This document shows, piece after piece, positions 52,220 to 64,000 of a stretch of 64,000 nucleotides of DNA (the stretch's first letter is position 1; every line of letters begins with the position of its first letter). Under the pieces are notes generated by a model. The model was not told the origin of the DNA, did no database searches, and worked only from the letters and a program-made list of their open reading frames with translations. The position numbers and the translations under genes were made by a program. This DNA is from Escherichia coli (GTDB taxonomy: Bacteria > Pseudomonadota > Gammaproteobacteria > Enterobacterales > Enterobacteriaceae): NCBI RefSeq assembly GCF_003334255.1, contig NZ_QOWU01000008.1; one strand, given 5' to 3'.

Positions 52220-52978
52220 TCACGCCACCCCAATCTCCATCCCATCAAACCCCACCTCAAACCCTGACGGTAGTGCGTTTTCCATCAGCCACGCATCAAA
52301 CTGGTGGCTGATATGGGTCAGAATCACCCGTGGCGAGCGGATAACCTGATTCAGCGCAAGCACGGTATTTAAATCACAGTGATTACGCGGTGCATCCGCG
52401 CGCGGCGGGTGACTGCAATCCATCACCATTACCTGCGGCTGATTATTGCGTAAAAATTTCAGCGTTTTTTCCGGCAAGCCTGCGGTGTCAGACAGCCACG
52501 CCACCCGGCTGTGTGCCGTTTCCAGCAGATAACCGAAGGTCAGTTTTGAGTGGTTGAGCGGCAGGGGCGTGACCTGTAACCCCTGCAAATCAAACACCAC
52601 AAACGGTTCCACCGTGTGGCTGAAATCAAGCAGGCCCGGATGTTTAAACAGATCGTCGCAGCCCTGTTCATCCGGCGGGCCGTAAACCGGGATCGGATCG
52701 CCAACGCCCCAGCGCAGCGGAAACAGCCCCTGGACGTGATCCATATGATAATGCGTCAGCAAAAACTGCTGGAACGATCCGGGCGACCAGCGATCGGCGA
52801 GATCGTGCAGCCCGGCGTCGATCAGGGTGATTGCGTCGTTAAACTTCACTACGCCGCTGCACGGTTGGCGGCGATACTGCGGCGAGCGCCGCGCTCTGGC
52901 GCAGGCCGCACACTCGCAGCCCCATGCCGGAACGCCCTGTGCGCCGCCGGTGCCGGTGAGCGTGAGGGTCAGGCTCAT
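52220..52978 (-). CDS. phnP: phosphoribosyl 1,2-cyclic phosphate phosphodiesterase, MBL fold (252 aa)
   Basis: Metallo-beta-lactamase motif HYHMDH; last gene of the phn operon. Confidence 0.9.
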
Positions 52979-52979
52979 G

Positions 52980-53414
52980 TTACAGCGCCTTGGTGAAGCG
53001 GAAGTGGCTCTGCTCGTAGCCTTCGCGCAGATAGAAACGGTGCGCGTCGTGGCGCTTCACGTTGGTCGAAAGTTCGGTCATTTCGGCCCCGGCCTGGCGG
53101 GCTTCTTCTTCTGCCCACGCCAGTAACTTACTGCCGACGTTCAGACCGCGCGCCTGCGGCATTACCACCAACTCCTGAATTTCGCCGATCCAGTTGACAT
53201 GATGCAGATGAAACTGCAAATGCAGGCCGATCATGCCGACAACTTCGCCATCAAGCAGCGCCAGATGGTAGCGCATGTTTGGGTCGCGCAGATTGGCGTT
53301 AAAACCCACGCGAAACGCGTGGTGGTCAAACTCCGCCTGTTTTAGCTCACAAATCAGCGCGTAAACCGCGTCGGTGTCGTACTGCGTGGCCGGGCGAAGC
53401 TCACAAGCAGGCAT
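52980..53414 (-). CDS. phnO: aminoalkylphosphonate N-acetyltransferase, GNAT (144 aa)
   Basis: GNAT acetyl-CoA-binding motif region ([22 protein letters not shown]). Confidence 0.88.
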
Positions 53415-53958
53415 GGTGTTTCTCCTTCTGATGGATCAGCGTCAGCAGCGTGTCGACCGACTGGCGCAGGCTGCCGTCATTGTTGAGCGTATGGCAATCC
53501 TGTGGAGTATAGCGGGCGGCGCGCGCCAGGCGGGCGTTAATTTCACTGGCGTTTTCACGGCCACGGTTTTCCAGGCGCTGGCGGAGGATCTCCGGCGAAA
53601 CCTGTAAACAGACGGGCAGCAGCGCCGATTGATAGCGCGCCCGCGCCTGCGGCAGATGGGCGCGTGAGCCGTTGACCAGCACGTCGAATCCGGCGTGCAG
53701 CCAGAGATCAATCTCGACGCCGACGCCATAATACAGACCGTTAGCGTGCCAGCTTAAGGCCAACAGATTTTGCCCCGCGCGGGTAAAAAACTCCTGCTCG
53801 CTCAGGGCGATATGGTTTTCACTTCCGGCGCTGGCATCGCGCGTGATGTAGCGATGCGCCACCAGTAACTGAGTTTGTTCCCGCAGGCGGAGTTCCGCCA
53901 GCAGGCTGTCTTTCCCGGAGCCGGACGGCCCCATTAACCAAATCAGTTTTCCCATCAT
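53401..53958 (-). CDS. phnN: ribose 1,5-bisphosphate phosphokinase (185 aa)
   Basis: P-loop [10 protein letters not shown]; guanylate-kinase-like. Confidence 0.9.
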
Positions 53959-55094
53959 CAGAACACCCTTTTACCCTGACGCCAGACGTGGTCGATATGA
54001 ATATGATTGTCCTTGCGATGCGCCAGCACCAGGTCGGCGCGTTTGCCCTCGCCAATCACCCCGCGATCCTGGAGATTAAGCGCCTGCGCTGGATTTTTAG
54101 TCACCAGCTTCACCGCCTGCGGCAGCGTAAAGCGGTTGCTCTGGTCATCGGCGACGCGAAATGCCGCATCGAGCAGGCTGGCGGGGTAGTAGTCGGAAGA
54201 GAGGATATCCAGCAGGCCAAGCTGCGCCAGTTCACTGGCCGCCACGTTGCCGGAGTGCGAGCCGCCGCGCACAATATTCGGCGCGCCCATCAGCACGTTC
54301 ATGCCATGCTTGCGCGAGGCTTCCGCCGCTTCGAACGTGGTGGGAAATTCGGCGATCACGCTGCCAAGCTGGTGAGATTCAGCAACGTGGGCGTGGGTGG
54401 CGTCATCGTGGCTGGCAAGCGCAATTTTTCGCGCGCGGCACAGGGCGGCGATGGATTCGCGATTCGGCTGCGACCAGCGTGCGGCGAGCGCCAGTTGCTC
54501 TTCTTCGTACTGCTGCATCTGCGCATCAGTGAGGGAGTATTTGCCCTGATAATATTCGCGATACTTCTCGCGGTTGGCGAACTGGCGCTGGCCCGGCGAG
54601 TGGTCCATCAGCGACACCAGCGTCACCGGCTCGCGCTGCACCAGTTTTTCAAACAGCGGCAGCGTGGTGTGATGCGGCAGTTCGCAGCGCAGATGCAGAC
54701 GGTGCTCGGCGCGGTTGACGCCGCGTTTCTGCGTCTCTTCGATGGCGTTGATCATCTTCTCCAGATTCTCCAGCCGATCGCCGCCGTCGCGCACGTCGCC
54801 AATTGCCACGGCATCCAGTACGGTGGTGATGCCGCTCGCCACCATCAGCGCGTCGTGGCTGCTCATCGCCGAGTGGGCAGGCCAGTCAACTTTCGGGCGC
54901 GGGGTGAAGAATTTATCCAGATTATCGGTATGCAGCTCAATCAGCCCCGGCAGCAGCCAGCCGCCTTCGCCGTCCATCGCCTCCGGCAGGCGGCTCTGGC
55001 TTTCGGCAAAGGCGCGGATTTCGCCGTTCTGCACCTCCAGCGAACCGCTTACCACCTCGTTTTCCAGCACCAGCTTAACGTTATTGATAATCAT
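53958..55094 (-). CDS. phnM: amidohydrolase-family triphosphate hydrolase (378 aa)
   Basis: Amidohydrolase metal-binding HTD motif ([11 protein letters not shown]). Confidence 0.9.
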
Positions 55095-55771
55095 GAAGAG
55101 GCTCCCATTGGGTGCAGGCGGTCGGCGACGTCATTACGTACAGCTTCGTCATGGAAGATGCCTACGATGGCTGCGCCACGGGTTTTGGCTTCGCGAATCA
55201 GTCCCACCACCGCGGCGCTGTTTTTGGCGTCCAGCGAGGCGGTAGGTTCGTCAAGCAGCAGAATGGGGTAGTCGACGATAAAGCCGCGGGCGATGTTGAC
55301 GCGCTGCTGTTCGCCACCGGAAAATGTCGATGGTGCCAGGTGCCACAGGCGTTCCGGCACGTTCAGGCGGGTGAGAAGACGCGCGGCTTTAGCGGCGCAG
55401 GCTTCACGCGGAACGCCGGTATCGAGCAGCGGCTGCATCACCACTTCCAGTGCTGAGATACGCGGGATGACGCGCAGAAACTGGCTCACCCAGCCGACGG
55501 TGGTTTTGCGGATTTCCACCACTTTGCGCGCTGGCGCGGTGACCAGGTCTACCCACTCGTCACCGTGTTTGATCTGGATTTGACCTTCGTCGGGCAGATA
55601 GTTGGCGTACAGCGAGCGTAGCAGAGTTGATTTGCCGCTGCCGGAATGGCCGTGGAGCACCACGCATTCGCCCGCGTTGACGGTGAGCGAGGCGCGATTG
55701 AGGACGGGCAGGCGCACGCCGTTTTGCTGGTGCAGGATGAAGGTTTTACTGACGTTTTGTACGTTAATCAT
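55091..55771 (-). CDS. phnL: C-P lyase complex ATP-binding protein PhnL (226 aa)
   Basis: ORF 55091..55885 trimmed to [11 protein letters not shown]...; Walker [10 protein letters not shown]; the track 5' extension translates the adjacent REP. Confidence 0.9.
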
Positions 55772-55790
55772 TTTTCGCCTCGTGGTTCGG

Positions 55791-55877
<87 letters not shown>

Positions 55878-55881
55878 CGGC

Positions 55882-56640
55882 TCAATTCTGCAAAACCGAT
55901 GACACCAGCAGCTGTGTATACGGATGATGCGGGTCGTCGAGCACGCGGTCGGTTAACCCACTCTCCACCACTTGCCCCTGCTTCATCACCAGCAAACGGT
56001 CCGCCAGCAGGCGGGCGACGCCTAAATCATGGGTGACAATCACCACCGCGAGGTTCAGCTCCACCACCAGGCCGCGCAGCAGGTCGAGCAGGCGGGCCTG
56101 CACCGACACATCCAGCCCGCCGGTCGGTTCATCCATAAACACCAGCTTCGGATGCGTCACCAGGTTGCGGGCAATCTGCAAACGCTGCTGCATACCGCCG
56201 GAAAAGGTGGTCGGCAGGTCGTCGATCCGGTTGGCGGGAATCTCCACCTCTTCCAGCCACTTCTGCGCGGTGGCACGAATATCGCCGTAATGACGTGCCC
56301 CGGTCGCCATCAGCCGCTCGCCGATATTGCCGCCTGCCGACACCTGGCGGCGCAGGCCGTCGAGTGGATGCTGATGCACCACGCCCCATTCGGTACGCAG
56401 CAGGCGACGGCGGTCGGCCTCGCTCATTGCATACAGCGAACGGTTCTCGTAGTGAATTTCCCCCTGCTGCGGCGTCAGGCGCGCGGAGATCGACTTCAGC
56501 AGCGTGGTCTTCCCGGAGCCGGATTCCCCGACAATGCCCAGCACTTCCCCCGGCCATAAATCAAAAGAGACATCGCTAAAGCCTTTGCCCGGCGCGTAAA
56601 GGTGGGTCAGGTTATTGACCGAAAGTAACGGTTGATTCAT
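55882..56640 (-). CDS. phnK: C-P lyase complex ATP-binding protein PhnK (252 aa)
   Basis: ORF trimmed to [11 protein letters not shown]...; Walker [10 protein letters not shown]. Confidence 0.9.
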
Positions 56641-57482
56641 TGGTTTTTTGCCTCGCTCTGTTGGCGGCAATAATCGGTATCGGAGCAGACAAACATGCGG
56701 TTTCCGGCGTCATCCAGCACCACTTCATCAAGATAGCTGTGGGTCGATCCGCAGATGGCGCATGGCTCATCCCACTGCTGAACGGTGAACGGGTGATCGT
56801 CGAAATCGAGACTTTCCACGCGGGTAAACGGCGGCACCGCATAGATGCGCTTCTCGCGCCCCGCGCCGAACAGTTGCAGGGCGGGCATCATGTCCATTTT
56901 TGGGTTATCGAATTTCGGGATCGGCGACGGGTCCATCACGTAGCGCCCATTTACCTTCACCGGATAGGCGTAGGTGGTGGCGATATGACCGAAGCGGGCG
57001 ATATCTTCATACAGTTTCACCTGCATCACGCCGTACTCTTCCAGCGCGTGCATGGTGCGGGTTTCCGTTTCGCGCGGCTCGATAAAGCGCAGCGGCTCGG
57101 GGATTGGCACCTGGAAGATAATTATCTGATCTTCGGTCAGCGGCGTTTCGGGGATGCGGTGACGCGTCTGGATAACCGTCGCATCGTCCGTACGTTCCGT
57201 GGTGTTTACCCCGGTCACGCGCTTGAAGAAGTTGCGAATCGACACGGCGTTGGTGGTGTCATCCGCGCCCTGGTCAATCACCTTCAGCACGTCGCTTTCG
57301 CCAATCACGCTGGCGGTAAGCTGAATGCCGCCGGTTCCCCAGCCGTACGGCATCGGCATCTCGCGCCCGCCAAACGGCACCTGATAACCGGGGATCGCCA
57401 CCGCTTTTAAGATGGCGCGGCGGATCATGCGTTTGGTCTGCTCGTCGAGGTAGGCAAAGTTGTAGCCGCTCAGATTAGCCAT
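56637..57482 (-). CDS. phnJ: alpha-D-ribose 1-methylphosphonate 5-phosphate C-P lyase (281 aa)
   Basis: ORF trimmed to MANLSGYNFAYLDEQTKRMIRR...; C-terminal cysteine cluster CAICGS...C. Confidence 0.92.
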   Translation of the reverse strand: MANLSGYNFAYLDEQTKRMIRRAILKAVAIPGYQVPFGGREMPMPYGWGTGGIQLTASVIGESDVLKVIDQGADDTTNAVSIRNFFKRVTGVNTTERTDDATVIQTRHRIPETPLTEDQIIIFQVPIPEPLRFIEPRETETRTMHALEEYGVMQVKLYEDIARFGHIATTYAYPVKVNGRYVMDPSPIPKFDNPKMDMMPALQLFGAGREKRIYAVPPFTRVESLDFDDHPFTVQQWDEPCAICGSTHSYLDEVVLDDAGNRMFVCSDTDYCRQQSEAKNQ

Positions 57483-58539
57483 GGTTCTGCTCCTGTTGCA
57501 GACGTTTGAGTAGCTCCAGTTCGGCCTGGAAATCGACGTAGTGGGGGAGTTTGAGGTGTGAGACAAAGCCTGCGGCTTCGACGTTGTCGGCATGTGCCAG
57601 CACGAACTCTTCATCCTGCGCCGGGCCTGTCGCGTGCTCGCCGTACTCCGGGGCTTGCAGAGCGCGGTCGACCAGCGCCATCGCCATCGCTTTGCGCTCG
57701 CTCATGCCGAACACCAGCCCGTAGCCGCGCGTGAAGTGCGGCGGCTCACCCGGCGGGTCGATAAAACCGTTAACCATTTCACACTCAGTCATCAGCAGTT
57801 CGCCGACGTTCACCGCAAATCCCAGCTCTTCCGGCACAATCGACACGTCGATATAGCCGCTGCGGATCTCGCCTGCGAACGGGTGATTGCGCCCGTAACC
57901 GCGTTGGGTGGAGTAGGCCAGCGCCAGCAAATAGCCTTCGTCGCCGCGCATCAACTGCTGCAAACGGGAGGAGCGTGAGCAGGGGTAAACCGGCGGCGTG
58001 CGGGTGATGTCATCCGGCTGTGCGCCGCTATCCTCTTCAAACTTCGCCAGCCCCTGACGCGCCAGCAGGCTGAAAACGTGCGGCGACGGCTGCTGTTCGC
58101 TGTCGGCGGTGGTCAGCGTCGGCGCTTCGCCGTTTGCCAGCAGGGTAAAATCGAGCAGGCGATGGGTGTAGTCGTAGGTTGGGCCAAGCAGCTGGCCGCC
58201 GGGAATGTCTTTATAAACGGCGGAGATACGGCGTTCGAGACGCATCCCGGTGGTGTCGAGCGGCTCGCTTACCGCCAGCTTCGCCAACGTGGTGCGGTAG
58301 GCGCGCAGCAGGAAAATCGCTTCAACGTTATCGCCGCTGGCCTGTTTCAGCGCCAGCGCCGCCAGTTCGCGGTCGGCAATGCCGCCTTCGGTCATCACGC
58401 GATCTACCGCGAGGTTAAGCTGCTGTTCAATCTGGGCGACGCTCAGTTCGGGCAAATCGGTATCGCCTCGGCGTCGGCTCTCTTGCAGGGCGTGGGCGGC
58501 GTCGATCGCCTTCTCGCCCCCTTTCACGGCAACGTACAT
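57475..58539 (-). CDS. phnI: C-P lyase core complex subunit PhnI (354 aa)
   Basis: ORF trimmed to [19 protein letters not shown]... Confidence 0.9.
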   Translation of the reverse strand: MYVAVKGGEKAIDAAHALQESRRRGDTDLPELSVAQIEQQLNLAVDRVMTEGGIADRELAALALKQASGDNVEAIFLLRAYRTTLAKLAVSEPLDTTGMRLERRISAVYKDIPGGQLLGPTYDYTHRLLDFTLLANGEAPTLTTADSEQQPSPHVFSLLARQGLAKFEEDSGAQPDDITRTPPVYPCSRSSRLQQLMRGDEGYLLALAYSTQRGYGRNHPFAGEIRSGYIDVSIVPEELGFAVNVGELLMTECEMVNGFIDPPGEPPHFTRGYGLVFGMSERKAMAMALVDRALQAPEYGEHATGPAQDEEFVLAHADNVEAAGFVSHLKLPHYVDFQAELELLKRLQQEQNHG

Positions 58540-59123
58540 CAGCACACCTCCACATGAGTGGTTCGCGGAATAGCCAGCAGGCGCTCGCCACAGGTCAGGA
58601 TCAGGTCGATGCCGAGCGGGAACGGATGCGGGCGCTCGGTGAGTTCGTGCAGAATGCACTCCGGCAGCTGCGGAGCGATCATTCGTTCTTCGGCAATACC
58701 CGCACCAGTAAGGCGCAACATGCGTCCGCCGCTCAGGCTGGCGACCTGTAAAATCAGCGTCGCACCCGCTTCCGGCGCAACGGCGGTGCCGGTGGAAAGG
58801 GCGTTGAGCTGTTCGCTGGAAATCGCCTCATCCGTCACCGCGAAGGTCGCCTGTTCCGGCTGGCTGACCAGCGGCGCGTTGGTATGAAAACGCAGGCTCT
58901 GGTTGACGATATCGTTATTTAATGGGGTAGAAAGCCACACCGGCGTGTCGTTATCGGCCAGCGTCAGCAGCACGCTGGTGGTGGCGATATTCAGCGGTTG
59001 CCAGCCGCGTTTGAGCTGATGCAGGGCGACAATCACGCCCGGCTCGCTCATGGCCTTTAACAGGCGACGAAAACTGTGCTGGGCATCCTGCACGGGAAGC
59101 ATAAAAGCGGTTTCCAGGGTCAT
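58539..59123 (-). CDS. phnH: C-P lyase core complex subunit PhnH (194 aa)
   Basis: Conserved position between phnI and phnG; 1-bp overlap with phnI. Confidence 0.88.
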
Positions 59124-59572
59124 GCGTTGTCTCCGCGAACCATCGTAAAGAAGTCGACCCGGCTGGCGTTCACTTCGGCCTGGCGTGCGGCAATGCGTGC
59201 CATACGGTCAGCGTCCAGCGGGGCAATAAGGGTTTCTGATAAGTTTTGAAAGTGGCGAGATTGCTGCATCAGCGCGTCAATCAGCGCGCAGCGTTCGGCG
59301 TGCTGTTTATCACGCCCCTGCACCCAGCTGTAGCCGAGCGTGCCGTCAGTCAGGCGCACGGCGGCGCGGGTCAGCGTGGCGTCGCCGGCAAAAAAACGTT
59401 CGCCGGTGCCGCCCATCCGCGCCTGAATCTGTACCAGGCCAGTTTCAGCGGCGCGGATCACCTCATAGTCGGCGGTGATGTTTAGCGCGTTCAGGCGTGC
59501 TGCCAGTTCAGCCGGTTGGCTGTGCGCCAGCACGGACATCCAGTGCTGGCGGGTCGCGGTATCTGCGTGCAT
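59120..59572 (-). CDS. phnG: C-P lyase core complex subunit PhnG (150 aa)
   Basis: Conserved position between phnH and phnF; 4-bp overlap with phnH. Confidence 0.88.
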
Positions 59573-60298
59573 TCAGTGCTCCATAGTGAATTCAATCATG
59601 TCGGCGCGCGTCAGGCTGACGGAGTACTCCGCCGGGCTGCTTTCACCGTCACGGTGGTTAAGGGTGCGCACGCACAGCAGCGGCGACATATTCGGGATTT
59701 CAAGACGCTGGCACTCTTTGGCCTGGGCGCGGCGGGCGCTGATCCGCGTCTGGCTGCGGCGCAGCGCAATTCCGGTTTGCTCGCGCAGAAAATCGTGCAG
59801 CGAGCCGCTGTCGAAGCGTTGCAGCGTCGGCCAGAGGGTGAGGTCCGCGAAGTAGTGGTCGATTAAACAGAGCGCGACGCCGTTGACACGACGCAGGGTG
59901 CGCAGGTGGATGACGTTCTCCCCCTCGGTAATCCCCAGTGCGTCAGCGACGTGGCCGGACGCGGGGCGCAATACCGAAAGCAGTTTTTCGCTGGTGGGAT
60001 GGCTGCCCTGATCCAGCAGATTCTGGCTAAAACGCGCCTGGGCGTTGAGCGGGTAATCGAACGGGCGCATCAGCACCAGCACGCCGACGCCCTGACGGCG
60101 CTGTACCCAGCCTTTTTCCACCAGTTGGTCGATGGCGCGGCGCAGGGTGTGGCGATTCACCTCAAAGCGCGCTGCCAGTTGCTGCTCGGCGGGAAGATAG
60201 TCGCCGCAGCGGTAGTGTTGACGAAGCTCCTGCTCAAGTTTTGCGGCTATCTCTTGATAGCGTGTTGGGTAGCTGGTCGGATGTGTAGACAAGTGCAT
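59573..60298 (-). CDS. phnF: GntR-family transcriptional regulator of the phn operon (241 aa)
   Basis: ORF trimmed to MHLSTHPTSYPTRYQEIAAKLE...; GntR HTH plus UTRA effector domain. Confidence 0.88.
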   Translation of the reverse strand: MHLSTHPTSYPTRYQEIAAKLEQELRQHYRCGDYLPAEQQLAARFEVNRHTLRRAIDQLVEKGWVQRRQGVGVLVLMRPFDYPLNAQARFSQNLLDQGSHPTSEKLLSVLRPASGHVADALGITEGENVIHLRTLRRVNGVALCLIDHYFADLTLWPTLQRFDSGSLHDFLREQTGIALRRSQTRISARRAQAKECQRLEIPNMSPLLCVRTLNHRDGESSPAEYSVSLTRADMIEFTMEH

Positions 60299-60318: not shown

Positions 60319-61106
60319 TCAGATAAAGTGCTTACGCAACCGTTGAGAGAGGAAATCCAGCAGGCTGACCGTGACGATGATAAGCACCATCAGGGCGCAG
60401 GTTTGTTGGAACTGGAAACCGCGAATCGCTTCCCACAGGGTGACGCCGATCCCGCCTGCGCCGACCATGCCGACGACGGTCGCCGAGCGGACGTTGGATT
60501 CGAAGCGATAGAGGGAGTAGGAGATCAGCAGTGGCATCACCTGTGGCAGCACGCCGTAGAGGATCTCTTCGAGCTTGTTGGCACCGGTGGCGCGAATGCC
60601 TTCCACCGGGCCGGGTTCAATCGCTTCCACCGCTTCGGAAAGCAGCTTGGAGAGCACGCCGGTGGTGTGGATAAACAGCGCCAGCACGCCAGCACGCCAG
60701 CGAACGGGCCGAGGCCGACGGCGACCACGAACAGCATGGCGAAGACCATTTCGTTAATGGCGCGGCAGGCGTCCATCAGGCGGCGAACGGGCTGGTAAAC
60801 CCACCACGGCACCAGGTTTTCGGCGCTCATCAGGCCAAAGGGGATGGAGAGAACCACCGCCAGCGCGGTGCCCCAGACGGCGATTTGCAGCGTGACGGCC
60901 ATTTCGGTGAGGTAATCCTGCCACTGGCTGAAATCGGGCGGGAAGAAGTCGGCGGCGAACGTCGCCATGTTGCCGCCGTCTTTGATCAGCGTAAGCGGGG
61001 CCATTTCCGCGCCCTGCCACGAGACGACCAACACGGCGAGTACAACGGCCCAGCTCAGAAGCGAGAACCAGCTGCGCTTGGGTGGGGCGATGGTGATGGT
61101 TTGCAT
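60319..61106 (-). pseudogene. phnE: phosphonate ABC transporter permease PhnE, frameshifted by an extra 8-bp tandem repeat unit
   Basis: Two overlapping ORFs (60537..61169 and 60319..60687) in frames offset by 2; three 8-bp units at 60678..60701; removing one unit restores a single frame of about 260 codons. Confidence 0.8.
60678..60701 (-). repeat. 8-bp tandem repeat x3 inside phnE (minus strand GCTGGCGT GCTGGCGT GCTGGCGC)
   Basis: Plus strand GCGCCAGCACGCCAGCACGCCAGC; coincides with the phnE frame break. Confidence 0.9.
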
Positions 61107-61120
61107 GTTTGGCTCCGGTC

Positions 61121-61208
61121 TGTAGGCCGGATAAGGTGCTTGCACCGCATCCGGCATCAACGCCTGCACATTGTCGGATGCGACGCCGGGGCGTCTTATC
61201 CGACCTAC
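61121..61208. repeat. pair of REP elements between phnD and phnE
   Basis: GTAGGCCGGATAAGGTGCTTGCACCGCATCCGGC and GTCGGATGCGACGCCGGGGCGTCTTATCCGACCTAC. Confidence 0.8.
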
Positions 61209-61211
61209 GAT

Positions 61212-62228
61212 TTACTGCACCGCTTTACTCACCGAACTCATCGCGCTTAGCGCGTTGTTCAGGCGGTCCAGGTCATCCAGCTGCGCCTGAATCTCGGTGG
61301 TTTTTGCCAGCTTGTCCTGCTCATTCAGTCCTTTATTGCTTTTCACGCCCTGCATCTCTTTAAACAGCGCGAGCTGGCGAATCGGCACCAGTTGCAGGTC
61401 GCTGGAAGCGCGGAATGGCGCCCAGCCCAGGCGTTCCAGCACCGCTTTTTCTTCCGGCGTTTTGCCGTAGTTCATAAAGAAGTCGTAGATCTTGTCTTTG
61501 GTGGTTTCGGAAAGATTCTTGCGCCAGACGATCGGATCGCCTGGGATCAGCGGCGACTTCCAGATCACCTTCAGTTCTTTCAGCTTCTCTGGCGCGGAGG
61601 TTTTCAGCTTGTCGAGGTTTTCGGTGTTGTTGGTGGCAACATCCACCTGCTTGTTGGCGACGGCCAGCGCGTTGGTTTCATGCCCGGCGTTGACGGTGCG
61701 CTTGAAGTCGCTGGCGGAGATATTGTTTTTGGCGAAGACGTAGTAGCCGGGGACGAGGAAGCCAGAGGTGGAGTTAGGATCGCCATTGCCAAAGGTGAGA
61801 TCTTTCCGCTTCGCCAGCAGATCGTTCAGGTTGTTGATCGGACTGTCTTTGTTGACGATCAACACGCTCCAGTAACCCGGCGATCCATCCGCCGCGACCG
61901 TCTGGGCGAAGACCTGGCCATTGGCGCGATCCACCGCTTCCATCGCCGACAGATTGCCGTACCAGGCGATATCCACTTTATTGAAGCGCATCCCCTGGAT
62001 AATGCCCGCGTAGTCCGGGGCAAAGAAGGCGTTGACCTTCACGCCCAGCTTCTTCTCCATATCCTGCAAGAACGGCGTCCATTGCGGTTTCAGGTTTTGC
62101 TGTGATTCCGTTGAAATAATGCCGAAATTCAACGCCTTTTCCTGCTCTTCGGCGTGCGCCGGGCTTAACAGGGTGCTGAGGCTGAACATGCTGGTGAAGG
62201 CCAGCGAGGCAATTATCTTAGCGTTCAT
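61212..62228 (-). CDS. phnD: periplasmic phosphonate-binding protein (338 aa)
   Basis: Signal peptide MNAKIIASLAFTSMFSLSTLLSPAHA; substrate-binding-protein fold. Confidence 0.92.
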   Translation of the reverse strand: MNAKIIASLAFTSMFSLSTLLSPAHAEEQEKALNFGIISTESQQNLKPQWTPFLQDMEKKLGVKVNAFFAPDYAGIIQGMRFNKVDIAWYGNLSAMEAVDRANGQVFAQTVAADGSPGYWSVLIVNKDSPINNLNDLLAKRKDLTFGNGDPNSTSGFLVPGYYVFAKNNISASDFKRTVNAGHETNALAVANKQVDVATNNTENLDKLKTSAPEKLKELKVIWKSPLIPGDPIVWRKNLSETTKDKIYDFFMNYGKTPEEKAVLERLGWAPFRASSDLQLVPIRQLALFKEMQGVKSNKGLNEQDKLAKTTEIQAQLDDLDRLNNALSAMSSVSKAVQ

Positions 62229-62252: not shown

Positions 62253-63041
62253 TCAGGCAGCTTTCGCGTTCTCTTCGACGCGGTTAATGCTGCGGTAGAG
62301 ATGGTCAAAACGTTCGTTATCAAACTGTTGGCTGCTGCCGTCGTAGAAGACGTGCCCCTGGCGCAGGGCGACGATGCGTTCGCAGTAGCGCAGGGCGTAA
62401 TCCACCTGATGCAGCGTGACGACCACGGTGATGCCGTCGTTCTGGTTGATGTCGCGCAGGGTGTCCATCACGATGCGCGCTGATTCTGGGTCCAGCGAGG
62501 CGATGGGTTCATCGGCCAGAATCACTTTCGCCTGCTGCATCAGCGCACGGGCAATCGCCACACGTTGCTGCTGGCCGCCGGAGAGGGTGGAAACGCGCTG
62601 ATGGGCAAAATGCACCATGCCAACGCGGGTCAGCGCCTGTAACGCGCGCTGTTTCTGCTCGCCGGTGAACCAGCTAAAACAGGTGCGCCAGAACGGCGTG
62701 CTGCCGAGCGCGCCAATCAGCACGTTCTCCAGTACGCTCAGGCGGTTCACCAGGTTGAATTGTTGGAATATGTAGCCGGTATGGGCGCGGCTTTTGCGGA
62801 TATCGCGGGCCAGGCGGCCTTCGCGCTGGACTGTGCGGCCCAGCAGCTCGATATGGCTACCGACAGATTTATCGCCGGTAATCAAACCGCTTAAGTGACG
62901 TAAAAGGGTGGATTTTCCGGAACCCGACGGCCCAAGCAGAGCCACCATTTCACCGTGATGAATGTTCAGATCAACCGCATGCAGCGCCTGATGCTGATTG
63001 AAGGTTTTGGCGAGCTTCTCGACACGGATAATCGTTTGCAT
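62253..63041 (-). CDS. phnC: phosphonate ABC transporter ATP-binding protein (262 aa)
   Basis: Walker [10 protein letters not shown], signature LSGGQQQR, Walker B ILADEP. Confidence 0.92.
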
Positions 63042-63082
63042 GATGCAGCCTCCCTAAAAAAGTGGCTCCATCGTGGCGGATT

Positions 63083-63118
63083 ATTGTGACGATTTGGTTA
63101 ATTAAAAGTGACTAACAG
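63083..63118 (-). promoter_or_regulatory. Pho box (PhoB binding site) of the phnC promoter
   Basis: Minus strand CTGTTAGTCACTTTTAAT TAACCAAATCGTCACAAT: two direct repeats matching CTGTCAT-A(A/T)A(T/A)-CTGT(C/A)A(C/T), about 45 bp upstream of the phnC ATG. Confidence 0.8.
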
Positions 63119-63173
63119 ATGAAGAGTTAACGGGAATTCGATGACAGTGCGGGAGGGCGGGCCTCCCGGCGGG

Positions 63174-63649: not shown

Positions 63650-64000
<351 letters not shown>

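Follow-up and report, generated by a model that had tools for sequence, protein, structure and literature searches.

Cryptic phnE of Escherichia coli K-12: an out-of-frame 8-bp repeat array and its copy number across E. coli genomes

Introduction

A cryptic phnE gene in Escherichia coli K-12, carrying a third copy of an 8-bp repeat and reverting by slippage, was reportedly described by Makino 1991 and Iqbal 2004 (as related by later papers), and the title of the latter is said to assert reversibility. What is stated about phnE switching rates and about the ON-to-OFF direction draws on paper titles and later citations (Makino 1991, Iqbal 2004, Guillemet and Moreau 2012). According to more recent studies, phnE of K-12 is frameshifted by carrying three copies of the 8-bp repeat instead of two (PMC7566553, PMC3463581), three-unit K-12 is deficient in growth on phosphonate until 8 bp are lost (PMC3463581, PMC6469041), and revertants by exact 8-bp loss are readily selected (PMC6469041, PMC4759930, PMC3463581). 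In a sequenced revertant, GCTGGCGT was deleted at nt 407-414 of phnE (PMC6469041), and an 8-bp deletion arose in five strains evolved under phosphate starvation, which the authors ascribed to high-frequency slippage between direct repeats (PMC4759930). Stasi 2019 likewise describes the third 8-bp copy and slippage reversion under phosphonate or phosphate-limitation selection. The repeat frameshift in phnE is therefore already known, and published work is our source for the Phn- phenotype and for the recovery of 8-bp-deletion revertants under selection.

A second group of systems for comparison comprises the simple sequence repeat (SSR) contingency loci of Neisseria, Haemophilus and Campylobacter, in which the reading frame is switched by an intragenic repeat with a unit length not divisible by 3. 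These loci have long homopolymer or tetranucleotide tracts and concern surface antigens, whereas phnE is a metabolic gene and its array consists of 2-3 units of 8 bp.

Here, we describe phnE in a DNA stretch of 64,000 nucleotides (hereafter the window, 64 kb) and examine the copy number of its repeat in complete E. coli genomes. The locus in the window is almost certainly the cryptic phn(EcoK) allele of E. coli K-12, silenced by a third repeat copy and restored by losing one. It agrees with phn(EcoK0) of K-12 (Makino et al. 1991; Iqbal et al.) in gene, 8-bp unit, three copies at nt 406-429 and organism, and we see no difference between them; the three copies, the frameshift and the K-12 sequence that define phn(EcoK0) are all present in the window. 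For K-12 itself this adds nothing new, being the textbook reason for the lack of growth on phosphonate until reversion, and annotation pipelines already flag the gene. It is a practical concern for K-12 work on phosphorus limitation, phosphonate, glyphosate or fosfomycin, as phnE+ revertants sweep cultures easily (PMC4759930, PMC6469041). No description of the natural distribution of the three-unit allele was found in the literature searched, the original phnE papers lying outside its reach.

Results and discussion

The phn operon and K-12 identity of the window

Positions 40000-64000 of the window are 100.0% identical over 24 kb to derivatives of E. coli K-12 W3110. The annotation of one of these, W3110-P, was mapped to the window by adding 50000 and agrees with the window ORFs from 50001 onward. 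Between the W3110-P loci and the window there is also a 1-base offset near the window start, and the last mismatch is at 63923, inside a REP array. The phnCDEFGHIJKLMNOP operon lies on the minus strand and is otherwise intact, all other phn genes being annotated as such. The ATPase gene phnC (62253-63041) and the periplasmic binding protein gene phnD (61212-62228) were identified from their ORFs and from the annotation of the matching K-12 record, while the regulator gene phnF and the C-P lyase pathway genes phnGHIJKLMNOP occupy 52220..60298 (annotated intact in W3110-P). The disrupted gene (60319..61106, minus strand), which follows phnC and phnD and precedes phnF and the C-P lyase genes, has the context expected for phnE, and RefSeq flags phnE as a "frameshifted" pseudogene in K-12 J53 and W3110-P. 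The proposal of the sequence-only reading that the locus matches the K-12 cryptic Phn- state is thus borne out by K-12 identity, by the RefSeq frameshift flag and by the published allele with its slippage reversion.

One position within phnE differs among K-12 records: at 60616, K-12 J53 (NZ_CP070962.1) has G in place of the A shared by the window, VR50 and other K-12 records (GATTGAGCCCGG versus GATTGAACCCGG), which looks like a J53-specific SNP.

Repeat array and reading frames

On the minus strand, phnE contains three tandem 8-bp units, GCTGGCGT GCTGGCGT GCTGGCGC, at window positions 60701..60678, preceded by GGCCCGTTC and followed by TGTTTATCC. They correspond to nt 406-429 of phnE (codons 136-143), the array starting at CDS offset 405 in codon phase 0. 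Both the sequence and Tandem Repeats Finder (60679-60701, period 8, 2.9 copies, 100% matches) confirm the array at exactly the coordinates first proposed for it, 60678-60701. Scanning periods 5 to 12 for runs of 15 or more lag matches yields a single hit in the 64-kb window, namely this array, and such runs appeared 2 times when the window was simulated 1,000 times with a first-order Markov model (approximately 0.002 expected per 64 kb).

As encoded, phnE, the gene for the phosphonate ABC transporter permease, spans 788 bp and is a frameshifted pseudogene by RefSeq flag, TIGR01097 and Pfam, whereas the functional allele has 780 bp and encodes 259 aa. The ORF list confirms that the gene is split at the array into two overlapping ORFs offset by 2 nt, as had been noticed from the sequence. 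The upstream ORF (61169/61106..60537, minus strand) has its ATG start at 61106, and the frame translated from this start (60537..61106) contains 140 native and 49 out-of-frame residues before a premature stop at 60539..60537. The downstream ORF (60319..60687, minus strand) comprises 122 codons from a GTG and encodes the C-terminal half of PhnE (ORF list and TIGR01097 positions 131-251), including the region of the EAA-type loop and the final transmembrane segments; its first start codon, the GTG at 60687, is inside the array. The two ORFs overlap by 151 nt.

Since 8 is not divisible by 3, an extra copy puts translation out of frame at codon 141. In silico, the three-unit sequence shows this shift and terminates after residue 189, the two-unit sequence stays open for 260 codons including the stop (259 aa), five units are again in frame with 267 aa, and one or four units are out of frame. 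Deletion of one unit therefore yields the single frame of about 260 codons that had been predicted, and the extra third unit is the cause of the phnE frameshift. The array thus resembles contingency loci in lying within an ORF, in having a unit length not divisible by 3 and in toggling the frame as its copy number changes.

The restored PhnE protein

With one unit removed, PhnE matches the NCBIfam equivalog model TIGR01097 (PhnE) at 311.5 bits (cut-off 216.7) over contiguous profile positions 8-251 of 252. The N-terminal fragment as encoded covers positions 8-133 (127.7 bits) and the C-terminal fragment positions 131-251 (176.5 bits), so that they meet at profile positions 131-133, exactly at the array. 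Because both encoded fragments score below the cut-off, the locus as it stands in the window is a pseudogene of the TIGR01097 family. The Pfam domain BPD_transp_1 covers residues 88-258 of the restored protein; truncated PhnE retains only about the first 50 residues of this permease domain and lacks about two thirds of it, together with the EAA-type loop (...LP; judged by eye). Such loops are the sites where ABC permeases contact their ATPase.

The functional phnE of E. coli B (REL606), like that of most E. coli, provides the closest intact counterpart. REL606 has two units and an intact 780-bp phnE (WP_001193500.1), and once one unit is taken out, the K-12 gene departs from it at 16 of 780 nt. 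All 16 differences are synonymous, the proteins being identical at 259/259 residues, and hence K-12 phnE has no sign of decay apart from the extra unit. The operon order is also the same in both. The comparison with a Phn+ strain suggested in the sequence-only reading accordingly gives the same protein once one unit is removed, and the Phn+ background REL606 carries two units rather than the three-unit array.

Proposed mechanism

PhnE is the membrane permease of the PhnCDE phosphonate importer, the usual two-copy array encoding Ala-Gly-Val-Leu-Ala-Leu and K-12 carrying three copies. The third copy moves translation out of frame at codon 141 and ends it after residue 189. In the mechanism that we favor, because the truncated PhnE is without about two thirds of the permease domain, K-12 is unable to import phosphonates in spite of intact phnC, phnD and C-P lyase genes. 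During replication, the nascent strand can slip against its template by a single unit (slipped-strand mispairing); when one unit is lost in this way, the 259-aa permease is regained, and revertants take over when phosphonate is the sole phosphorus source or when phosphate is limiting. The array, its frame arithmetic, the agreement of the restored protein with functional PhnE and the polymorphism of copy number (below) are direct observations, while slippage as the molecular route, an event that a sequence does not display, is what we infer to connect them.

Copy number across complete E. coli genomes

The phnE array region is present in 5,393 of the 5,426 complete E. coli genomes surveyed. Two units were counted wherever a two-unit probe matched at 95% identity or higher, which gives 4,353 records (approximately 81%). 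Three units were detected in 999 records at 99% or higher identity to a 141-nt three-unit probe, a level unreachable for the two-unit allele, and in 998 genomes (approximately 18%) by at least 80% coverage of a 42-nt probe that is seeded only by arrays of three or more units. Longer arrays are rarer: four units occur in 12 records (100% identity, full coverage), including VR50 and isolates from humans, chicken, a pig farm and wastewater, while seven units are present in one record (OkiPb01713 from bovine faeces, 1560-1615 of its locus) and ten in another (2013C-4974 from human stool, 1560-1639 of its locus), both annotated as frameshifted. All of these natural 4-, 7- and 10-unit arrays are out of frame.

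To describe the carriers, an evenly spread sample of 58 three-unit records was sorted by strain name and source only. About a quarter are apparent laboratory K-12 derivatives (DH5alpha, BW2952, MG1655, C600, EPI300 and others). The other three quarters or so had been isolated from humans, dogs, cats, pigs, chickens, a pigeon, a deer, seawater, sediment and oil palm. Since natural isolates make up so large a share, the three-unit allele is not a laboratory peculiarity and is not confined to laboratory K-12. The OFF allele of phnE is thus carried by approximately one-fifth of sequenced E. coli, among them numerous isolates from patients and animals, and lack of phosphonate import through PhnCDE is probably common in one natural lineage.

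Probable descent of the three-unit allele

Six natural three-unit loci were compared with K-12 by pairwise alignment; a multiple alignment that included loci with a 1,371-bp deletion (described below) had been dropped for its spurious gaps and SNP counts. Five of the six differ from K-12 by 0-5 SNPs over 6.5-7.8 kb, as against 129 SNPs for REL606 over the same span. The sixth, SC516, has 49 SNPs, 42 of them in phnC or in the 5' two thirds of phnD and a single one in phnE; because of this clustering in phnC and phnD, a recombination breakpoint can be placed, from the alignment, inside phnD, which would leave phnE on the K-12-like side. A three-unit probe with the flanks of another common haplotype (B1-type) recovered no three-unit allele, only the 7- and 10-unit arrays, and three-unit alleles on other flank types amount to at most about 10 records (95-99% identity band of the three-unit probe). 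In view of the near-identical flanks in five of six loci and of the B1-type result, the three-unit allele looks mostly inherited by descent on one phn haplotype rather than produced by frequent two-to-three switching. Judging by this comparison of phn loci, the carriers would belong to the clonal complex of K-12 itself.

Longer arrays appear to have more than one origin. No SNP separates the four-unit locus of VR50 from K-12 over 3.1 kb, and the four-unit form therefore derives from the K-12 haplotype. The 7- and 10-unit arrays are found on a non-K-12 haplotype, 85-86 SNPs away, and are most readily seen as independent expansions. Taken together, the 4-, 7- and 10-unit alleles would show that slippage occurs in nature.

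The resemblance to the contingency loci of Neisseria, Haemophilus and Campylobacter consequently extends to a copy number that is polymorphic among strains (2, 3, 4, 7 and 10 units) and that varies between closely related genomes, as between VR50 and K-12. Unlike those loci, phnE has an OFF allele that behaves mostly as a stably inherited haplotype in natural genomes. The view of the sequence-only reading that the array acts as a phase-variation-like switch therefore holds in part: revertants are selected in the laboratory, but the natural three-unit allele appears for the most part to be one inherited haplotype, so that the phase-variation label rests on laboratory selection experiments and not on the population pattern. 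A wider proposal is that the cryptic allele is natural and long-lived, that OFF is favored in its lineage and that the array is a natural contingency switch whose longer, unstable versions have been caught mid-process; we consider this rather unlikely. If OFF did bring an advantage in that lineage, it might be that PhnCDE imports harmful phosphonates.

Alternative explanations

Inheritance of the three-unit allele in about 1,000 genomes on one near-identical haplotype is also what would be expected if phnE were an ordinary pseudogene en route to loss, formed by a one-off, stably inherited duplication in a lineage whose phn operon is decaying. The four-unit derivatives, being likewise out of frame, agree with such decay, and so do further phn lesions in some natural three-unit carriers. 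In both 2013C-4991 and 14EC017, the same 1,371 bp have been lost between GATGGCG direct repeats (equivalent to window 56312-57682), so that phnI is joined to phnK and phnJ is missing (annotated in one record as a single 1,287-bp "PhnI" gene), and SC516 has a 117-bp in-frame deletion in phnF (equivalent to window 59641-59757) as well as an internal stop in phnJ. These cases fit an OFF state that is sometimes the first step to permanent phn loss. Other natural three-unit isolates, such as 300709 and 51008369SK1, have an intact operon. Compared with E. coli B, moreover, K-12 phnE is free of nonsynonymous changes, the other phn genes are annotated intact, and strains restored by exactly 8 bp of loss are obtained with ease (PMC6469041, PMC4759930, PMC3463581); as a full account of the window, decay, the main rival, is very improbable. 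For K-12 the descriptions as a decaying pseudogene and as a switch are compatible, and decay fits some natural carriers better than it fits the window.

It might also be supposed that functional PhnE is made without any DNA change, through programmed ribosomal frameshifting, transcriptional slippage or a split permease, for the two frames overlap by 151 nt and the downstream ORF has a GTG start within the array. Neither fragment, however, reaches the TIGR01097 cut-off, and the published growth deficiency of three-unit K-12 persists until 8 bp are lost (PMC3463581, PMC6469041), which reduces this explanation to a minimal probability. The same near-zero weight is given to the extra 8 bp being a sequencing or assembly artefact: only the general error-proneness of repeats speaks for it, whereas the array is found in about 1,000 independent complete genomes and its three units have been confirmed by Sanger and Illumina sequencing (PMC6469041, PMC7566553). 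The cryptic K-12 allele, OFF with three units and restored by the loss of one, is hence the reading that we retain for the window.

Other features near the phn operon

Several additional sequence features were recorded in and around the operon. In the two-unit genome 2014C-3011, phnE is inactivated by another route: compared with the two-unit allele, 83 bp have been lost between CCCGTTCGC direct repeats, one of which abuts the array (equivalent to window 60694-60784). A search upstream of phnC for a Pho box gave no match to the typed consensus CTGTCATAAANCTGTCAC with up to 3 mismatches; repeated CTGT/GTCAC motifs (CTGTTAGTCACTTTTAATTAACCAAATCGTCAC) are present in this region (window 63080-63173, minus strand), and the same interval contains a G+C-rich hairpin, GGGAGGCCCGCCCTCCC, just downstream of yjdN.

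The phnD-phnE spacer has a single REP-type element (window 61125-61205, plus strand) that matches naRNA4 at 69.1 bits (gathering score 59.5). The naRNA4 family is a nucleoid-associated noncoding RNA of the REP element type. Between yjdN and yjdM (window 63681-64000), a 100-bp unit is tandemly repeated in 3.2 copies with 97% matches, and its units match Rfam RF02564 (naRNA4) at 107-111 bits on the minus strand (63681-63757, 63781-63857 and 63881-63957). The start of yjdM relative to yjdN in other strains is 151, 251, 294, 351 or 551, and because most of these offsets differ by multiples of 100 bp, they suggest that the copy number of the yjdN-yjdM array varies among strains.
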